64,000 bases of DNA from a virus (Duplodnaviria; Caudoviricetes), in IMG/VR virus record IMGVR_UViG_3300038679_000051, positions 64,001 through 128,000 of that record; one strand, written 5' to 3'. Positions 8,260 through 64,000 of this stretch are shown piece by piece. A model generated the notes under the pieces. That model had not been told where the DNA came from. It did no database searches and saw only the letters and a program-made list of their open reading frames with translations. Numbering within the stretch: position 1 is the first letter of the stretch; each line of letters opens with the position of its first letter. A program made the position numbers and the translations under genes.

Positions 8260-9166
8260 CCATGCGTTTCAGTTCATCTTGGCGTTTAATCAATGTGTCA
8301 GCCTGTGCTTCTGATTGTGTCAGGCATTCAGCTAAATCCGCCTCCTGCGGTTTAATCACTTCTTCTACCCACAACCCCCACAACCGTTTCATTTCATCTT
8401 CACAAGCCGTTTCCCAGTCTTGTCCACTTAAGATGATTTCTTTGGTCAGTAAATTTCGACCATATTTCAATTCGGTTTCAGTCGGGAGCTTCAGACTGTA
8501 ATCGGTCTCTCTTACTTTGTCCGGCACTTCTGGCGACCACCTATAAATCATTGGTCTGCTTGATACTTCCGCCGCTGGAAAGACCTTCTTGGGTAATGAA
8601 TAAGTACCAATTTCATCTTTATGACGCAGTTTGCAGCGTTCGCTCCAACAGAATTCTTCCCATGATAGGGGTCGCCAACAAGCATGTAATTTGAATTCCT
8701 CGAACTCCAATCCAGTTGCCTTGCGCAGACCTTCAAGTCCGAACATTGCATTGCCGACCCCAGTTTGGTCGTTCGCACCGACAAGATGTTTGGCACCGTA
8801 TGCCCAACCGATGAACGTCCAAAACCTTGCTTTGAACGTTTCCCATTTCTGACGTGATGGACTATGTGCATTACGCCATTCGGCCAGCGATGCGTCGTTT
8901 TCGTGTACGCATTTGAATTCCAATCCGATCTCTTTGTGGATGAACTTTCGATAGAACTTGCTGATGAAATCCAATCGTTTACAGTCTCTCTCATTTGGTC
9001 CGACGACGTTTAGCTCAAGACCGTTGTAATGTGCCGCCTGGTAGAATTGTAAAAATCTTGATAAGGTTTTCGGCGAGATGATTTCCTCATAATTCAATCC
9101 AGCATATGCCATTGCACCGGATTGCCAAGCCATGATCGTGTCATGTGTGTTGCTAAACGTTGGCAT
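8132..9166 (-). CDS. hypothetical protein
   Basis: 344-aa ORF overlapping the end of the sigma-like gene. Confidence 0.55.
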   Translation of the reverse strand: MPTFSNTHDTIMAWQSGAMAYAGLNYEEIISPKTLSRFLQFYQAAHYNGLELNVVGPNERDCKRLDFISKFYRKFIHKEIGLEFKCVHENDASLAEWRNAHSPSRQKWETFKARFWTFIGWAYGAKHLVGANDQTGVGNAMFGLEGLRKATGLEFEEFKLHACWRPLSWEEFCWSERCKLRHKDEIGTYSLPKKVFPAAEVSSRPMIYRWSPEVPDKVRETDYSLKLPTETELKYGRNLLTKEIILSGQDWETACEDEMKRLWGLWVEEVIKPQEADLAECLTQSEAQADTLIKRQDELKRMDASIERTKELAIERIEASEECLKIFSSFNALFDKGCKNEDKS

Positions 9167-10250
9167 CAGACCTCCTTTCCAACTCTGCCGTCACTCTTGC
9201 CATTATGGTGCCACGCAATTCGTTCTTTAATCGTAATCGTCGGTCGTTGGCCTCGGCTTGTTCTTTTGACAATTCATCGGACTGTTCACCGGCCATGATT
9301 CTGGCCTCATTCATCATGTCTTTTTTATTCTTTTTCTTTCGTTCAATGCGTTGCCGTTTGTGCTCACTGACTTTTTGCGTCGTATCGAGAATTTTGTCCA
9401 CCACGTCTCTGCCAAGCACGCGGTCCACGTCCTCGCGTGGGTATTCCTCAAGAATGATGGTTATGGCACGACCTTTCAATTTGTCAATCGTCATGTGGAT
9501 CATCTGTCGGCTGACTTTACGATTTCTGGCGATGTCGACCGGTTGCAACCCAGTCAGTAAGTCGTTTACGATCTCTTTCTGGTCTGGACTTTTGGCAGAT
9601 TCATGCATTGCTTCAAAGAGACGTTTAGTCATTGCTTTCAACTCTTCCGGCATTCCCTTATCCACAAGATCAAGCTTGTACTGATCATCTTTATCCTTGT
9701 CGAGCGGATCAATCTGTACCATCATTGGGGGCAATTTATGTTTGAGATTGTAATCACAAGATGGACATTTTACCGTACCGTCTGCATTTGGGATGGCAGC
9801 CATTCCGACGTTGTGATTTTCACAATTTGGATTGGTACAGAACCATCGTTTCTTCAATGGGACTCTCATCAAGCTGCGATGATATTTTGCCCGTTGACAG
9901 ATTTGACGGACCCATCTCCTACTGAATCCCTCCATTGTAATTGTCGGCATCCACTTGTCGGTTAAGGCGGCACGCCACAATGCATATATGGCATTGGCTT
10001 TCATCTCTTCGAAGGAGATTTTGGGATTGGAATATCTCCTTGATTCGCGTTCGATCATGCTCATGCACAACTTGATGCGTTCTTCCATTTCATCGTCTGG
10101 CACCAGTCGGATCGTCCTGATACCCTCTGCTTGGAGACGTTTCGATTCGTCTTCGGTCAGCAATCGTCCGGCTTCATCCATATATTGTGGATTGATTGGT
10201 TTTTCCGTCAACGTATTTCTTCGTGTGGTCATCCCGACTTCCTCTTGCAT
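9153..10250 (-). CDS. sigma-70-like transcription factor with a Zn-ribbon insertion
   Basis: Region-2-like MIERESRRY...ISFEEMKANAIYALWRAA; CTNPNC...CPSC insert; region-4 HTH QPVDIARNRKVSRQMIHMTIDKLK. Confidence 0.6.
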   Translation of the reverse strand: MQEEVGMTTRRNTLTEKPINPQYMDEAGRLLTEDESKRLQAEGIRTIRLVPDDEMEERIKLCMSMIERESRRYSNPKISFEEMKANAIYALWRAALTDKWMPTITMEGFSRRWVRQICQRAKYHRSLMRVPLKKRWFCTNPNCENHNVGMAAIPNADGTVKCPSCDYNLKHKLPPMMVQIDPLDKDKDDQYKLDLVDKGMPEELKAMTKRLFEAMHESAKSPDQKEIVNDLLTGLQPVDIARNRKVSRQMIHMTIDKLKGRAITIILEEYPREDVDRVLGRDVVDKILDTTQKVSEHKRQRIERKKKNKKDMMNEARIMAGEQSDELSKEQAEANDRRLRLKNELRGTIMARVTAELERRSDANV

Positions 10251-10330
10251 TTGTAACCCTCCATTCTCACATTACGTCATTTCCTTTTATCAATGTTTTC
10301 ACATTTGTCAATTCTTGACAAATAAACGAC

Positions 10331-10363
10331 AGCAACGCGAGGGAGAATCCCCCTCGCGTTGCT
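10331..10363 (-). terminator. 13-bp perfect hairpin, terminator-like
   Basis: AGCAACGCGAGGG-7 nt-CCCTCGCGTTGCT just downstream of the 10389 stop. Confidence 0.55.
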
Positions 10364-10388
10364 ACCCCCCCCTGCTATTTTATTTATG

Positions 10389-11060
10389 TTAATCTGGTTT
10401 TAAAGAAGGACTGTATTTCTTGACAAATCCCATCGTTTCAAGGACTTTTGCCTTTTTATCTACATCAGCGTCAATGAAGCGTCGTTCGTGCAGTTCTTTG
10501 GTGGTAAAGAGCGTCACATTAATCGCGAACAACTCATTGAATCTTTCCGGGCCACCAACTGCTTCGATGATTTTCCGCAACGTTTCGTCATCCTGTCCTT
10601 CTTTCTTCAGAGCGATTGAATACTTGGTAGAGAAGAATCTATCTACCTCATCACCAAATGCTTTCTTGGCTTCATCCAAGACTTCATTGACTTTGGCTGC
10701 GGTTTCTTCGCCAGCACCCTTGACCACCGTTTGGTGCAATTCGTTGTATTGTACGTAGCAGAGAAGCTTGTCGTTCAGTTTGACGGAGCCTTTGTAGCCG
10801 CTACCGTCACGACAGGCTTTCTTGTGCTCACCTTCGATGCTCTTAGCGATGATGCCTTTGAATTGTTCCTTCCGTCCCTCGGCATCTTTGAAGTCCTCGG
10901 CCGCTTTAATGAAGCCATCAACGGCCATGTCCAGATCGGGAAGATTGATGCGTGGTTTTTCTTCTTTTGCCTTACTGGAAGACGGTGCAGCTTTCTTGAT
11001 CAAACCACCTAATACGCCACCGAGCGGTGCACTTTTGTCTGACTTTTTGTCTTTAGCCAT
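10389..11060 (-). CDS. hypothetical protein
   Basis: 223-aa ORF with a strong RBS. Confidence 0.6.
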   Translation of the reverse strand: MAKDKKSDKSAPLGGVLGGLIKKAAPSSSKAKEEKPRINLPDLDMAVDGFIKAAEDFKDAEGRKEQFKGIIAKSIEGEHKKACRDGSGYKGSVKLNDKLLCYVQYNELHQTVVKGAGEETAAKVNEVLDEAKKAFGDEVDRFFSTKYSIALKKEGQDDETLRKIIEAVGGPERFNELFAINVTLFTTKELHERRFIDADVDKKAKVLETMGFVKKYSPSLKPD

Positions 11061-57393: not shown

Positions 57394-59433
57394 GTGTTAT
57401 GTCAAACATATTGGAGAACATTGGCGCAATACAATAATTCTGTATTGCCTGCTTTGAAAAATCAAAAGGAGAAAAATTTCATGTACCAGGACATTACGGA
57501 AGCTGATCTACCCAAAAAGGCACCGGTGCCAATGATGCCTACGGCGGATATTAAAAAACTGAGAACGGCTGCGCAACCGGAAGCGGCTAAAGCTGTTGCA
57601 GGACGATTGGAGAAGATTGATCCAAAAGTGCTCGCTGCTATGGCACATGCTCGTACTGAAAGAGGTACGGCGACGAAGAGCATGCAACATGGCATTGGTG
57701 GTGGTCCAGTTGATTTGTTACCACCGGCAGTGGTCAATGATTTCAGGGCCGCTCTACCACATTTTATTGATGTGGCGGCGGCTGGTGGTTATAGTCCTAG
57801 AAGGGTCGAACAAAATGATTTAGATGATGTCAAATCAGGCGAAGAAAAACCGGCCTGGTGGCATAACATGAATGAGAAACTTACGGAAATTAAAACTAAG
57901 GTTAAATCGATTTTTGAATTACACATTGATGATGCTGCATTGTTAGGTAGACATTCGAAACAAATAGATGACATGCATACGATGGGTCAGATGTTTGGTT
58001 ATTTGATGGCTGCGCTGCAACCACCTAAAGAAGAAACGGACGTTATGCGTACTGCTGCTGGTGAGATCAATAAAGCATTGAGAGGACCATATGTGGACGA
58101 TGACGATGATCCAACCGCCGAAACGGAAATATACGGCGATTGGTATAAACGAGCCGAAAAAATCGGATGGGATCGAGAGACTGGCATGCAAAAAGGTTGG
58201 AAATATCTTGAAGACAAGGACGGTAACGTCATTGAAACGCCAGATGGAGAATTGAAACGAAAACAGGGTGCCATACTTGAAGCATTGAAGAAGGAATTCC
58301 TGACTATCATGTATGCACAATTAATGGTACACGAAACGCTGTTGAAGGGCGACAATAAAAATAAACAAAAACTTGAACGAGATGCACAAGTAAGTAAACA
58401 GAGATATGAACATTGGGAAAATGAAATGGCTTTGCTTAAGAATGAAATCATTCACGATGAATACCCATTTACGAGATTTTTTCAATTGATGGAATCGATT
58501 ATACAAAAATCGGCACTCGGCGGCGGTGCCGTATTCCGGAAAGAACGTGACAAACACGCACTGGGCCGTAAGGGGAGACAAGAATTCAGATCACAAAAAG
58601 AATGGGATGACCTAGTACAACAAGTCACGCAACGTGCGAAGGACCCACAATCATCCCCAAATAAATATCAAGACATTGTCGATGAATACGTTGCAAAAGG
58701 TGCAAGCAAACAAGAGATCAATGACCTGATACGGACCGTTGAGGCCGAAAACGCATTCAAATGGGAACGGGAGAGAACTAAAATGAAAGAATCGACGGAA
58801 AAAACAAGTGTGCCACTAGTCGAAGTTGATCAAGAAGGACCAATCAATCTTGCTGATCGACCAGGTAATCCTGCACATACCTTCCAAAAAGTGTACCAAG
58901 AATTTGTTAAGAGATCTGAATTGCAACCAGTCACGCAACAGGATTATGACGACACTAAAAACGTTTGGTTCAATGCCATTAACACGCACATTGGCCATGG
59001 CATAAGCCAAAAGAATGCAAATAGAGTGTTTGAAGGCGTGAAAAAAATCGAAAACGATTACCCTGATTTACAGAAGAGATTCGAGAAATTATTGTTTTAT
59101 GGGACTAATTGGTTACTCTCCGCTATGGGTCTTAGTTCTGAATCATTTGAAATGATCGTCGACGATACGCTAGAATGTCTATTCGAAATAGATGAAAAAC
59201 GGCTTATAGCGATCATATCTGAATCTAAAACGCTATCCGAAGGCAAAGAAGAATCAATTGCCATGCTCCGCGAATTGTTAAACAAGGCGAAGCTAGGCGA
59301 CCTAACTAAATACGACATACACAACACCATCAAAAAACACGTTCCAGCCATGGAACGAAACACGCAACAATACGAAGACCTGTTCGACGGCCTACAAAGT
59401 GCATTGGAATCATACGGTAAAATCGTTGCCTAA
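57394..59433 (+). CDS. large helical hypothetical protein (probable start ATG 57481)
   Basis: AAGGAG RBS before MYQDITE; first gene of the plus-strand block. Confidence 0.6.
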   Translation: MLCQTYWRTLAQYNNSVLPALKNQKEKNFMYQDITEADLPKKAPVPMMPTADIKKLRTAAQPEAAKAVAGRLEKIDPKVLAAMAHARTERGTATKSMQHGIGGGPVDLLPPAVVNDFRAALPHFIDVAAAGGYSPRRVEQNDLDDVKSGEEKPAWWHNMNEKLTEIKTKVKSIFELHIDDAALLGRHSKQIDDMHTMGQMFGYLMAALQPPKEETDVMRTAAGEINKALRGPYVDDDDDPTAETEIYGDWYKRAEKIGWDRETGMQKGWKYLEDKDGNVIETPDGELKRKQGAILEALKKEFLTIMYAQLMVHETLLKGDNKNKQKLERDAQVSKQRYEHWENEMALLKNEIIHDEYPFTRFFQLMESIIQKSALGGGAVFRKERDKHALGRKGRQEFRSQKEWDDLVQQVTQRAKDPQSSPNKYQDIVDEYVAKGASKQEINDLIRTVEAENAFKWERERTKMKESTEKTSVPLVEVDQEGPINLADRPGNPAHTFQKVYQEFVKRSELQPVTQQDYDDTKNVWFNAINTHIGHGISQKNANRVFEGVKKIENDYPDLQKRFEKLLFYGTNWLLSAMGLSSESFEMIVDDTLECLFEIDEKRLIAIISESKTLSEGKEESIAMLRELLNKAKLGDLTKYDIHNTIKKHVPAMERNTQQYEDLFDGLQSALESYGKIVA

Positions 59434-59436
59434 TGC

Positions 59437-59760
59437 TTAGATTGTTCCATCATTGCGTACTTCCGTTCGGCCTACGCTCAATTTCTTTAAAATCATCCTC
59501 GCCATGTCCACGGCACAATATAACTGTGGGTTTTCCTTCTCAACATCCTCAAGTTCGTCTAACTCCATTGCCGCAAACGTCTCAAGGTTATCCAATACCC
59601 AAATAAGCCTCGGCAACAATGCGGTCGCAGTCGCGTTTTGTAGAGACTCATCAGATTGTATCCCAAAGTCGGCTATATGTCGTCCTTTATCGTCAACAAC
59701 CGCACATTGTCCATGGCCCTGCGTATCCACGTGCCAGTTTTCATTTTTAAAATCCTTCAT
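59437..59760 (-). CDS. hypothetical protein
   Basis: RBS GGAGG; W...GHG...VVDDKGRHIAD..NATA.A.LP motif. Confidence 0.5.
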   Translation of the reverse strand: MKDFKNENWHVDTQGHGQCAVVDDKGRHIADFGIQSDESLQNATATALLPRLIWVLDNLETFAAMELDELEDVEKENPQLYCAVDMARMILKKLSVGRTEVRNDGTI

Positions 59761-60047
59761 TTTTCTATCCTCCCCATGAAATCGTCGCTTATGACTACTG
59801 GGCGTTCAAAATTTCGACGTGCTTGGTTGAATTGTTTCATGAATTCCTCTTTCTCATTTGAATTCATGGTCTCATCGATAATTTTAATGGCCTCTTCATC
59901 AAAACCATTTTTTAGCCAATCATAAATGTGTCCCATTCGTTCATGTGCAATTACAGCTGGATCATTGCCAGTCGCCAATGCCTCTGAAGCGATGCTGGAC
60001 TCGAAAATTTTAACGATCATATCATCCATTTGGTTCCTCCTCTGCAA
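59757..60047 (-). CDS. hypothetical protein
   Basis: Co-oriented; probable start MDDM. Confidence 0.45.
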   Translation of the reverse strand: MQRRNQMDDMIVKIFESSIASEALATGNDPAVIAHERMGHIYDWLKNGFDEEAIKIIDETMNSNEKEEFMKQFNQARRNFERPVVISDDFMGRIEK

Positions 60048-60167
60048 ACGTCTTTAATCTATGTCATCAAATTCGTCAATTTATTTTTAAAATTGACGGA
60101 TTTATTCATTGCATATAAGTATTTAATGATTTGTGAATGATTCCATTTTCATCCAAAGGAGAAGAAA

Positions 60168-61433
60168 ATGTCTAATACTGATTTTGTGTTCAATGCCGGA
60201 AAATTGACGTTTGTAATGGATGGTGGGGCCGGAAGTTCTGGAAAAGGAAAAATTGGATCATTTATAGCAGAAAATTCGAGTAGTTGGCAATTTGCATGTC
60301 ATGCATTTATGTCAAATGCAGCGCACATAGTAATAATAGAATCTGGTAAACAATATTTATACCAATGTTTATCTTCAATGGCATATTTACATCAACGATA
60401 TGAGAAAATTTATATATGTGGTGGAGCAGTAATAGAATTGCCAGCATTATTGAAGGAGATCGAAGAAAATGGAATCCCGAAAGATAAAATTGGCATCCAT
60501 CCACTAGTGGCCATAGTCCAACAAATTGACATTGACTATGAATGTGGTTTGTGTGATTTGGACGGAAATTATTTCCAAGAACGACGAGTTTGTGAGAATC
60601 TCAAATTAGGTTCGACACTGCACGGAGTCGGTGCCGCACGAGCACGACGCATTTTGCGTAAAAACAATGCTTTATACGCAAAAGACGTACCCGAATTGCA
60701 GGAATATATATGTGATTCTCGTGCCGAAATAGTGACTAGACTAAACGGCGGCCAGTCAGGCATCTGTGAGATTGCTCAAGGATTCCAATTGGGATATTTG
60801 GAACCACGGTTCGCACCGAAGACGACGAGCCGCAATTGTACCGTCGCGGCCGCACTAGATGATTGTGGCATTCCGCCATTTTATGCTGGAAACGTAATCA
60901 TTAACTTTAGAACATATCCAATCCGCGTAAACAACAACAAATATGTAGATTCTAGAAATGGCAAGATTTTGAATCACGAGGAAATATCGCAAATGAAAAT
61001 TAAAGGCGACGATGGTTATGTCGAGACAATTAAAGGCGACAGTGGTGCTTGTTATGAAGATCAACAGGAAATCACCTGGGATAAAGTAACGAATGACAGC
61101 GGCATCAAGAACATCGACCCATCAGCCGAAATTAGAGAAACGACGTCACTCACTAAGTTGGAACGACGCGTATACAATTGGTCCAAAATCAATTTAAGAG
61201 ATGCAATCATTTATAATAAAACGAATGGTAAAACGTTTATTTCAGTTAATTTTATGAATTACGTTGACGCCACGTTAACCGGTAAACGAGGAATGGTTGT
61301 CGACGTCATGCACAATCATCCTAGAGCATCTGCGTGGTTGCAAAACAACGTCATGCAGGTAACAAATGGAACTGGTGCAATGTTGAAGTTTCTTGGTACC
61401 GGCGCAAAATCAAACGACATGGTTTGCTTCTGA
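60168..61433 (+). CDS. purZ: PurZ-type succinoadenylate synthetase (2-aminoadenine pathway)
   Basis: PurA fold with GSSGKG (Ser for the PurA catalytic Asp of GDEGKG), GSTLHGVG, RTYPIRV, SGACYED, TSLTKLERR (Leu for the PurA Arg), NFMNY in place of TKLD. Confidence 0.8.
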   Translation: MSNTDFVFNAGKLTFVMDGGAGSSGKGKIGSFIAENSSSWQFACHAFMSNAAHIVIIESGKQYLYQCLSSMAYLHQRYEKIYICGGAVIELPALLKEIEENGIPKDKIGIHPLVAIVQQIDIDYECGLCDLDGNYFQERRVCENLKLGSTLHGVGAARARRILRKNNALYAKDVPELQEYICDSRAEIVTRLNGGQSGICEIAQGFQLGYLEPRFAPKTTSRNCTVAAALDDCGIPPFYAGNVIINFRTYPIRVNNNKYVDSRNGKILNHEEISQMKIKGDDGYVETIKGDSGACYEDQQEITWDKVTNDSGIKNIDPSAEIRETTSLTKLERRVYNWSKINLRDAIIYNKTNGKTFISVNFMNYVDATLTGKRGMVVDVMHNHPRASAWLQNNVMQVTNGTGAMLKFLGTGAKSNDMVCF

Positions 61434-61459
61434 TTTGTAAAGTCTAAAAGGATAAATGT

Positions 61460-61933
61460 GTGACTAAAGAATGCAATAAGTGTGGCATACAAAAACCGCT
61501 TACCGCCTTTTCTAAAAATAAGAGTGATTCAAGTGGGTATTTTCGTTGGTGCAGAGAATGTTGGAACGCAGCAAGAAGAAAACGATATGCCAAAAATCCA
61601 GAACCGTTCAAATTGGCTGGTGAAAGGTACAGAAACAAGAAGGAATTAATGCTGTCTGAATGTTTTTGGTGTCATAAACCGGCCGTGAAATTATCGGCGA
61701 TCATACCAGGAACGTCGAGATTAGTCCCGACATGCAATGGGTGTTCATATGATGCTACCATTTTCGGTAGATTGAATAATGATAAAACAATAGAAATCTT
61801 ATCATCACTAAATGAAGACGACCTTAATAAGATAAGACACATTCTTATCGGTGAGGCACTAAACGTGAAATCTGCGATAGATGCAATGAATCTCTACGAC
61901 AAACATAAAAAAGAGAGGAAAGTGACAAAATGA
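61460..61933 (+). CDS. Zn-finger protein (HNH-associated N-terminal module, no nuclease core seen)
   Basis: CNKC..KPLTAFSKNK...WCREC; CFWC...CNGC. Confidence 0.55.
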   Translation: MTKECNKCGIQKPLTAFSKNKSDSSGYFRWCRECWNAARRKRYAKNPEPFKLAGERYRNKKELMLSECFWCHKPAVKLSAIIPGTSRLVPTCNGCSYDATIFGRLNNDKTIEILSSLNEDDLNKIRHILIGEALNVKSAIDAMNLYDKHKKERKVTK

Positions 61934-62286
61934 ATGTGATCATTTCAACTGGGATTGTGGTCGACAAACCAACATCATCAGGATTAATATATAATCGACA
62001 GACTGTGCAGAAAATTATAGATGATTTTAATAAAAATCCCAATGACGTGTGTGGTGGGTTATTAAATCGTAAATCAATTGAAAAAATTGGTAAGAAGACA
62101 CACAAGGTGAAAAGCGTCTTTCTACATAATGACGAATTAATGATGAATGCAGACATAATTGACGAATCAATTATGGACGATCTGAAAAATGGACAATTTG
62201 TCGCCAAACCAATAGTAATCAATGAATTGAACCAACCCACGAACGTAAAGGGTTTGCGCAGAATAGACATTGAGAGACGAAAATGA
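61930..62286 (+). CDS. possible degenerate prohead-protease-like protein
   Basis: DKPTSSGLIYNRQTVQKII...GGLL...THKVK resembles the T4 gp21-type N.NGRIY...GEL.H layout but lacks the His and SSRG motifs. Confidence 0.3.
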   Translation: MNVIISTGIVVDKPTSSGLIYNRQTVQKIIDDFNKNPNDVCGGLLNRKSIEKIGKKTHKVKSVFLHNDELMMNADIIDESIMDDLKNGQFVAKPIVINELNQPTNVKGLRRIDIERRK

Positions 62287-62714
62287 ATTTCAAAAATAGA
62301 TTATCCTTGATTATGGAAGACGTATTGTGTGAAGTAAGATATATGCATCTTATCTATGGACCCACAGACGACCCAGGGACTCGGAAATGGCAGGACAATC
62401 AAAACGAGAAATTTCAACGAGGACAAGCCACAGTCTATCTTAATACTATCGACGAATTATTGAAAAAATACTCCACACAACCAAGCGTCGAACAAATCAA
62501 GACAATAATAGACAAAAATTTTGAGTCATTGCTCACACGGTTGAATCTCCAGAATTTATATAATACGGCTTCTTATAGAAAATATATGAATTACATATCA
62601 AATTTTTTACATGAGAAATGGGACATGTTAGAGATTTTTGCTGACGTCGATGGCGATGAGTCAATTGACCAAGAATTAATTGATCGCCTTGCTGGTGGGC
62701 AGGATCGTGAATAA
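62283..62714 (+). CDS. hypothetical protein
   Basis: ATGA coupling. Confidence 0.5.
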   Translation: MNFKNRLSLIMEDVLCEVRYMHLIYGPTDDPGTRKWQDNQNEKFQRGQATVYLNTIDELLKKYSTQPSVEQIKTIIDKNFESLLTRLNLQNLYNTASYRKYMNYISNFLHEKWDMLEIFADVDGDESIDQELIDRLAGGQDRE

Positions 62715-62762
62715 TTGACTGTAGATCAAATCGCGATAAAAATCCTCTGAGGAGGACAAGCG

Positions 62763-63113
62763 ATGATCAGAACATATGACATTAAAGCTAAAAGACACCG
62801 GTTTGATCCAACCGACGAAGAAATAAAATTATATGAATGGATCAGAAACAACATTGAAATTCGTCCCTCGATTAGGAAAAACGGTCATGAAATGGTACGA
62901 ATTACCGATCATAAAGGCATTTTTTATATGAATCCAATGTACATGATGAATATGCCAAAAGAAATCATATCATTAGTCATCAAAGTTGCAAGAAATCAAC
63001 ATCCAAAATTTAATGGCGATGATGGCGAATTGTGCAGCATGATTTTAGAAAATAAATTGTCGTTGGATTTGTGCACCACCCCATATTATGAATATGAAAC
63101 ATTTGAAGTTTAG
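62763..63113 (+). CDS. hypothetical protein
   Basis: GAGGAG RBS. Confidence 0.5.
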   Translation: MIRTYDIKAKRHRFDPTDEEIKLYEWIRNNIEIRPSIRKNGHEMVRITDHKGIFYMNPMYMMNMPKEIISLVIKVARNQHPKFNGDDGELCSMILENKLSLDLCTTPYYEYETFEV

Positions 63114-63224
63114 TGACCGACGTTTGGCCGAGGAGAAAAGATGAGCGAACGAATTGGGGGTAGGTGATGGTTGTCGAGGGGGTCACTGAAGAGAGATTAG
63201 CGAAGGTGAAATGGGAGCGCACCA

Positions 63225-63827
63225 ATGACCGCTGAAACTGCGGAACTCATGGAAAGACGTGCTTTTCTTTCTAATGATCATTCTATTGCAACCCAACTGG
63301 GCATTGACGTGCTCAATGCAAGCCCGGATTGGGACGAGCACACTGTTCATCCTCAAACAGGTCCTAAGCCTTTGTGGAGCTTAACTATAAAAATGGAAAC
63401 ACCCAAAGAGATGCCGTTCAATAACTTCGGCAATGAACCGATTTTTGATGCTCCAAGAAGGACGATGGATTGGGTGCGACCGGTTGCAAAAAAACTGGAT
63501 GAGTTGTTGTCTCTTCCTCAAAACTGGGATTCTTACGGCGCTCCGAAGATCGCCGATTCCGTGGTTCCCACGGTAATCGGTCTCTTACAAGATGTGATGC
63601 TACCCACCACTCCGATTCCACAAATTTTTCCGACAAGTTCAGGGGGCGTTCAGTTGGAATGGCACCAAAACGGTGTTGACTTAGAAATCGAAATTGATCC
63701 GCACGACTTTGCGCACGTTCATTTCGTTTGTGAAAATTCCGTGCAAAGTGAAGAATTTGAGGGGGAGGCGTCAACTCATCAAAAAGAATTGGCGGAACAA
63801 ATTCGTTTTTTATCAAACTGCAAATAA
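63225..63827 (+). CDS. hypothetical protein of a widespread uncharacterised family
   Basis: LDELLSLPQNWDSYGA..I...PQIFPTSSGGVQLEWH..GVDLEIEI. Confidence 0.55.
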   Translation: MTAETAELMERRAFLSNDHSIATQLGIDVLNASPDWDEHTVHPQTGPKPLWSLTIKMETPKEMPFNNFGNEPIFDAPRRTMDWVRPVAKKLDELLSLPQNWDSYGAPKIADSVVPTVIGLLQDVMLPTTPIPQIFPTSSGGVQLEWHQNGVDLEIEIDPHDFAHVHFVCENSVQSEEFEGEASTHQKELAEQIRFLSNCK

Positions 63828-64000
63828 TCGAATTTCAATTCCTTAATTCTTTCTGTGCTATTTTCCAGAATTCTATTGCCCATCGTCTAGATTGACCAGT
63901 CGTTAATAACGGTATAACATTATCTTCTATCCATTCCTGGTCGATATTGTTTATTTTAATTAATTCTGCATAATCACCACGATCCTTCAGACGACCAGCA

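Follow-up and report, generated by a model that had tools for sequence, protein, structure and literature searches.

A divergent PurZ-like synthetase in a complete jumbo phage genome and a possible alternative route to 2-aminoadenine DNA

The 64,000-nucleotide stretch analyzed here (the window) corresponds to positions 64001-128000 of the 320,399-bp virus record IMGVR_UViG_3300038679_000051 and contains an open reading frame (ORF) for P0001, a protein of the PurA superfamily. An earlier note on this DNA had seen in the gene a signature of PurZ, the enzyme behind 2-aminoadenine (Z) DNA, and suggested a jumbo-type carrier; the record, which has direct terminal repeats and an estimated completeness of 100%, is indeed that of a jumbo phage. 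P0001 itself is an intact, divergent relative of PurZ that belongs to a separate clade and is not a canonical PurZ. At about even odds (a probability near 0.5), we favor an ATP-dependent PurZ-like enzyme that aminates 2'-deoxyguanosine monophosphate (dGMP) and feeds Z into DNA, together with a deaminase-based removal of deoxyadenosine compounds. Z-containing DNA in this phage is plausible but unproven: the PurZ-like active site speaks for the pathway that the note had proposed, but the helper set is non-canonical, with a deaminase here and the lyase PurB in many relatives.

What makes the active site PurZ-like? P0001 was aligned with E. coli PurA, PurZ0, four reference PurZ enzymes and members of its own clade, and the alignment was interpreted through published structural descriptions; motif conservation was counted over 115 full-length relatives and conservation of single residues over 30 members. 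The five motifs quoted in the earlier note all lie in this ORF and were located by residue (Table 1), the PurA motifs that it had given for comparison (GDEGKG, TTGRRRR and TKLD) are seen in the aligned E. coli enzyme, and the three positions that it took as diagnostic follow PurZ. At the first of these, Ser23 of the P-loop replaces a catalytic residue, Asp13, that is kept in 99% of PurA sequences; it aligns with phiVC8 Ser14 and S-2L Ser23, and GSSGKG recurs in 110 of the 115 relatives. Changing this Ser to Asp in PurZ is reported to abolish substrate selectivity. At the second, Leu331 of the aspartate loop stands at the position of E. coli Arg303, as Leu278 does in S-2L PurZ (TKLPRR), and Leu is found there in 100/115 relatives. 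At the third, the NFMNY motif has Asn364 where PurA reads guanine with Asp333, and Phe362 and Tyr365 align with phiVC8 Phe295 and Tyr298 (NFxNY in 106/115). The substrate contacts described in the literature as unique to PurZ are Ser23, Thr273 and Gln308 in S-2L and Ser14, Thr262 and Asn297 in phiVC8; their counterparts in P0001 are Ser23, Thr326 and Asn364, Thr326 being aligned with the Thr found only in PurZ.

The side of the site that faces the sugar can be traced in the same way. Val254 ends the RTYPIRV strand (PIR[IV] in 113 of the 115) and corresponds to S-2L Val241, a residue said to clash with the ribose 2'-OH; in PurZ, an insertion after this conserved Val is described as pulling it towards C2', excluding ribonucleotides. 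P0001 has both the Val and the PurZ-type SGxxYxDQ segment, including a three-residue YxD insertion that the alignment places in PurZ and P0001 but not in PurA or PurZ0; Gly293 is invariant, and Ser292, Tyr296 and Asp298 are present in at least 90% of the 30 members. Residues for general nucleotide binding are conserved too (His53, Gly148/Thr150, Arg164, Gln204, Thr220-Arg222 and Arg333/334). Because the residues that the literature assigns to guanine and ATP use are PurZ-like and conserved, the most likely activity of P0001 is to succinyl-aminate a guanine nucleotide, probably dGMP, at the expense of ATP. Seven of the 115 clade members carry NFADY in place of NFxNY, keeping Asp at the guanine-reading position; these may use GTP.

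Comparisons of fold and family point in the same direction. P0001 matches Pfam PF00709 (E 4.6e-12; 45.8 bits against a gathering score of 27) and PHROG 1211. A sequence search of solved structures returned phiVC8 PurZ first (6FM1/6FKO/6TNH, E 1e-21), then Pyrococcus PurA, S-2L PurZ and PurZ0. The AlphaFold model, built on 30 relatives, has a mean predicted local distance difference test score of 94; with this model, Foldseek placed the phiVC8 PurZ complexes with dGMP and ATP at the top (E 1e-26), followed by S-2L PurZ, archaeal PurA and PurZ0, with bacterial and eukaryotic PurA ranking below all of these, and gave a probability of 1.00 to 43 PurA or PurZ chains. The motifs are therefore no chance occurrence. 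In a posterior mean site frequency tree of 74 sequences, the large-phage sequences form a monophyletic group (100/99) with a long stem (0.43-0.5), separate from both the reference PurZ clade (100/100) and the PurZ0 clade (100/99); it sits with ATP-type sequences, outside PurZ0 and the types that retain Asp. The identification as PurZ thus stands as far as the substrate-contact residues, Thr326, YxD and the position outside PurZ0 are concerned, and fails as a claim of membership in the characterized family, as set out below.

How might such an enzyme lead to Z-DNA? P0001 would use ATP to phosphorylate a guanine nucleotide, most likely dGMP, at O6; its addition of aspartate would then yield N6-succino-2-amino-2'-deoxyadenylate. 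The next step is assigned to host PurB because the phage genome has no adenylosuccinate lyase: the host enzyme would release the Z deoxynucleoside monophosphate (dZMP), which host kinases would convert to the triphosphate (dZTP), and the phage replicase would incorporate Z opposite T. That replicase would be of the DnaE type; the DnaE (DNA_pol3_alpha) match is shared by two ORFs of 450 and 737 amino acids about 2 kb apart, and the catalytic subunit is, to judge from these matches, split or interrupted. Finally, a protein of the adenosine-deaminase family, encoded elsewhere in the genome with its catalytic motifs intact, would lower the deoxyadenosine or dATP pool, standing in for DatZ/MazZ; if neither it nor another clearing enzyme acted, Z would replace A only in part. 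The deaminase as a stand-in for dATP clearance is reasonable but unproven. The substrate, the sugar specificity and the role of the deaminase are what we infer from the protein and its genomic company, and the replacement of A by Z could be full, partial or nil.

That company was assessed on 20 large-phage clade records and, from the same search, 12 small contigs with a classical PurZ. A YfbR-like DatZ above the family cut-off is present in 12/12 classical contigs and in 0/20 clade records, and PF04447 MazZ in 10/12 and 0/20. Conversely, Lyase_1 (PurB) and A_deaminase (PF00962) each occur in 9 of the 20 clade records and in none of the 12 classical contigs; the nine deaminase-bearing records include the present genome. 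Seven clade records at least 83% complete, together with Flavobacterium phage MaF61, all encode PurB, the deaminase or both: deaminase only in G000 and G002, both in G001, G012, G015 and G016, and PurB only in G014 and MaF61. PF00962 is very rare in cultured phages, with matches in 6 of 50,697 records. In a reciprocal check of four more deaminase-bearing viral contigs, a complete 395-kb phage has a PurZ-like gene and two others are fragments; the fourth is taken up below.

Against this reading stand observations on the protein, on its genome and on its relatives. P0001 does not reach the 300-bit cut-off of the NCBIfam PurZ model NF038379: it scores 131.4 bits, compared with 397 for phiVC8 PurZ, 366 for PurZ0 of DrRobert, 145 for the MaF61 homolog and 127 for E. 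coli PurA. Since it scores about as E. coli PurA does and falls in a clade of its own, it is not a canonical PurZ. The tree places it outside the clade of characterized PurZ enzymes, with just 50/71 at the joining node, and, because the root is E. coli PurA alone, the deep placement of the clade is not fixed. The position of phiVC8 Phe12 is Ala in 102/115 relatives. The clade also has three conserved insertions of its own. The first (residues ~121-143) brings a D121/E125/G127/G133 element into the nucleotide loop before GST; the second (~255-288, some 35 residues) directly follows Val254 and opens with a strongly conserved N-S-N-K-Y, where PurZ has Gly-Gly after the Val that faces C2'; the third lies before the aspartate loop. 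Those at the nucleotide loop and after Val254 could change base or sugar specificity.

These insertions, which flank the nucleotide site, also suggest what else the enzyme could be doing: the same chemistry on a different purine nucleotide, again through a succinyl intermediate. Ribo-GMP, for example, might be converted to 2-amino-AMP and passed to ribonucleotide reductase, or the substrate might be a modified or oxidized purine whose product is not dZMP. The missed PurZ equivalog cut-off and the long stem fit this idea, and so would the PurB proteins of the mid-size clade phages, which are divergent (227-267 bits against a cut-off of 446) and could reflect a non-standard succinyl intermediate. 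We nevertheless regard it as unlikely, though the alternative to take most seriously. Around the 2-amino group and the base, P0001 resembles PurZ in its residues, and the 2'-facing position still holds Val or Ile; no 7-deazaguanine genes (TGT/DpdA or QueC) were found in the genome; and in the closest complete jumbo relative, PurB scores above the cut-off of the ordinary purB equivalog model (373 against 326).

The genome raises its own objections to a dGMP-aminating PurZ pathway. The earlier note had seen no datZ, mazZ or dpoZ in the window, and the absence extends to the whole genome: tblastn with phiVC8, S-2L and Acinetobacter-phage queries found no DatZ, MazZ or DpoZ, and a search with hidden Markov models (HMMs) gave no candidate for an HD/YfbR-like DatZ, MazG, PF04447, PF18909, DUF5664, NDT or Nudix protein. 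PurB is likewise missing from the genome by tblastn with four phage PurBs and by HMM. The deaminase gene lies 112 kb from the PurZ-like gene, and the solved structures closest to its product are adenosine (nucleoside) deaminases, for which no dATP activity is known. Among the relatives, the complete clade phages G014 and MaF61 have no deaminase, and the fourth contig of the reciprocal check, a deaminase-bearing phage of 234 kb that is 89% complete, has no PurZ-like gene.

Several proteins were considered as substitutes for the missing partners and set aside. The sole PolA-family match in the genome extends over no more than the C-terminal third of the family model (42 bits, neighbors included) and falls in a 373-residue ORF that is too short and too divergent to be DpoZ. 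The single HD hit, an HD_4 protein encoded just 5' of the window, has SpoT/RelA-type hydrolase motifs, does not resemble DatZ and is possibly a phage (p)ppGpp hydrolase. A pyrimidine-deoxynucleotide cluster contains two ORFs of the dUTPase family, neither retained as a DutZ-like dATPase: one is a trimeric dUTPase of the ordinary kind, whose 36-40% identity to actinophage DutZ-type proteins is non-discriminating, and the other looks like a dCTP deaminase; a thymidylate-kinase-like (Tmk-like) P-loop protein is encoded between them. In mid-size clade members, an HD family that adjoins clamp-loader genes matches DatZ at all catalytic residues; it was rejected as a specific partner, being a widespread phage deoxynucleoside monophosphate (dNMP) phosphatase found in 253 phage records, lambdoid phages included, and it is absent here.

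Could P0001 simply be an adenylosuccinate synthetase? Deaminase, synthetase and lyase make up the purine nucleotide cycle, and the three co-occur in the clade; the phage might convert inosine monophosphate (IMP) to succinyl-AMP in such a cycle or in a pathway that boosts AMP, leaving its DNA bases unchanged. Source annotations do call the homologs adenylosuccinate synthase, and the dATP-clearing enzymes usual in Z phages are absent. Yet the PurA hallmarks are replaced in P0001, with Ser23 for the catalytic Asp13, a substitution shared by 110/115 members and the reverse of the change that destroys selectivity in PurZ, and NFMN, with Asn for the guanine-specific Asp333, for the GTP-specific (N/T)KxD. 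Of the PurA models scored (TIGR00184, NF002223 and NF003295), every one is missed by a wider margin than the PurZ model, the best being NF003295 at 113 against 368 bits and TIGR00184 giving 52.5 against 396; the low rank of bacterial PurA structures in the Foldseek search agrees with this. An ordinary adenylosuccinate synthetase is, in our view, distinctly improbable.

The clade to which P0001 belongs is large. Searching 1.84 billion representative proteins yielded 81 clusters at E < 1e-30 and 706 at < 1e-10, and a word-based search gave more than 330 homologs, the best 120 of which are 43-77% identical, several of them on contigs of 100-385 kb. Clade proteins have about 400-450 residues, and the contigs that encode them are mostly viral and tens to hundreds of kb long, reaching 385 kb. 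The sole member found in a cultured phage is ORF141 of MaF61, and the sole cellular copy found is on contig L106 (441 kb) of a Pirellulales metagenome-assembled genome. The latter (8422-9411 and 10593-10991) is split by an insertion sequence, whose transposase gene lies at ~9457-10612; within 3.5 kb of it are ORFs for a small P-loop kinase-like protein and an HD dNMP-phosphatase-like protein. Seven of ten longer homologs scanned (734-893 residues; P0122, P0124, P0127, P0189, P0209, P0236 and P0238) carry insertions of Hint-type intein and/or LAGLIDADG homing-endonuclease domains at no fewer than three sites, near query residues ~50, 147 and 222. Inteins tend to occupy genes whose active sites are strongly constrained, and from the number of homologs and the repeated intein invasion the gene looks important to its carriers. 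This deep conservation, along with a recurrent PurB/deaminase pairing that suggests a pathway with flux, makes it very unlikely that the enzyme merely manipulates nucleotide pools (using up dGMP or dATP, or making small amounts of Z, for counter-defense, host shut-off or partial camouflage in DNA that is mostly A), even though the genome has a synthetase with no lyase and no recognized dATPase or dGTPase, S-2L PurZ itself uses up dATP as phosphate donor, and, as for a stand-alone accessory gene, no neighbor is conserved within 10-12 kb over 42 loci.

How does P0001 compare with characterized systems? It shares the fold of PurZ/DgsS, the succino-amino-deoxyadenylate synthases of Vibrio phage phiVC8 and cyanophage S-2L (7ODX), which are among its best solved relatives by both sequence and fold; beyond the P-loop Ser, the PurZ-only Thr and YxD, it resembles them in an NFxNY-type motif (NFCNY in phiVC8, NFAQY in S-2L) and in TKL(P/E)RR. 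It differs from them in being just 25-30% identical, about 60-80 residues longer owing to the three insertions, and in having Ala for Phe12. The carriers differ as well, clade members ranging from ~125 to nearly 400 kb and classical PurZ contigs, with DatZ, MazZ and DpoZ, from ~35 to 90 kb. PurZ0 (Gordonia phage Archimedes, 7VF6; Arthrobacter phages) is also a phage-borne member of the wider PurZ group and has Ser at the Asp13 position but, unlike P0001, it keeps the guanine-reading Asp (TMLD) that goes with GTP as donor, lacks YxD and passes NF038379; it is reported to travel with DutZ, DmtZ and DUF5664. The short archaeal-type PurA of Pyrococcus horikoshii (5K7X/2D7U), the next-best solved match, has the compact PurA fold, but it was crystallized with IMP and GTP and represents the model NF003295 that P0001 misses. 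The comparison also takes in the cultured member of the clade, MaF61 ORF141 (PQ858689, 168 kb), annotated as a "putative adenosuccinate synthetase": it is 35% identical to P0001 and has GSSGKG. Unlike the phage studied here, MaF61 encodes PurB ~10 kb from the synthetase gene and has no deaminase gene; the paper describing MaF61 mentions neither the synthetase nor DNA base composition.

Natural Z-DNA and its enzymes have been described in small phages with DatZ, MazZ and DpoZ or, in actinophages, with DutZ and DmtZ sets, and the accessible literature does not link PurZ to jumbo phages, phage PurB or a deaminase; the present case is a complete 320-kb genome with a deaminase and without a lyase. 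It invites a broader proposal, which we put forward tentatively and at less than even odds: that an entire lineage of large to jumbo phages, of which some have DnaE-type replicases, replaces A by Z through a second pathway built on a divergent PurZ, with PurB in many members and a deaminase in place of DatZ/MazZ. If this were true, base replacement would extend to jumbo phages and to DnaE-type replicases, Z-DNA would be a common trait of the largest phages, put together on two or more occasions with different helpers, and the deaminase would add another example of convergence between different enzymes on the removal of dA. If, on the other hand, phages of this clade make no Z-DNA, the Ser/NFxNY signature by itself is not enough to predict a Z genome, a point that matters for annotation: PHROG 1211 and record annotations already say "2-aminooxy adenylosuccinate synthetase". 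The cultured MaF61 makes the question of Z-DNA directly testable.

Table 1. Positions of the PurZ-like gene, its motifs and other features mentioned in the text (window, positions in the 64,000-nucleotide stretch; genome, positions in the 320,399-bp record).
Feature	Position	Strand	Residues	Basis or remark
PurZ-like synthetase gene, PurA superfamily	window 60168..61433	+	421 aa	open ORF, P0001
Shine-Dalgarno-like GGAG	window 60158..60161	+		6 nt 5' of ATG 60168; read from sequence
P-loop GSSGKG	window 60231..60248	+	22-27	Ser23 at PurA catalytic Asp13 position; alignment
RTYPIRV strand	window 60909..60929	+	248-254	Val254 = S-2L Val241 in alignment
SGACYED segment, three-residue YxD insertion	window 61041..61061	+	292-298	alignment
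Aspartate loop TSLTKLERR	window 61143..61169	+	326-334	alignment
NFMNY base-recognition motif, ATP-type	window 61248..61262	+	361-365	alignment
Adenosine-deaminase-family protein	genome 12418-13356, outside window		312 aa	PF00962; HxH, HxGE, HG and TDD catalytic motifs intact
DnaE match in two ORFs	genome C1:172227-172511, 174445-174963	+	450 aa, 737 aa	DNA_pol3_alpha
PolA-family match	genome C1:184844-185212	+	373 aa (ORF)	rejected as DpoZ
HD_4 protein	genome C1:62571-63140	-	189 aa	rejected as DatZ
Pyrimidine-deoxynucleotide cluster	genome C1:148101-150164	-		trimeric dUTPase, thymidylate-kinase-like P-loop protein, dCTP-deaminase-like protein
Divergent ORF	window 59757-60047	-		5' of the spacer
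Inverted repeat	window 60074-60098			perfect, 9 bp; loop 7 nt
Neighbor ORF, Cys-rich, endonuclease VII / HNH-like	window 61460..61933	+	157 aa	PHROG 1035 (E 4e-12), 2633 and 2255; E 4e-12 to 3e-8

Apart from the endonuclease-like ORF that follows the PurZ-like gene, its immediate neighbors have no informative Pfam or PHROG matches, and over the 42 related loci, compared for 10-12 kb around the gene, the most widely shared other ORFs recur in just 5-6. The endonuclease-like ORF may encode a free-standing homing endonuclease next to a gene that is itself a target of inteins, although its link to the finding is uncertain. Upstream, an AT-rich spacer of 120 nt separates the gene from a divergent ORF and contains a perfect inverted repeat (CGTCAATTT / AAATTGACG), which could be an operator or a hairpin. 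The gene also lies in a region, window 58000-64000, in which the coding strand changes from minus to plus and both AT skew (from ~58 kb) and GC skew (from ~60 kb) change sign; GC content there is 0.385-0.39, compared with ~0.41-0.51 in the earlier 2-kb bins.

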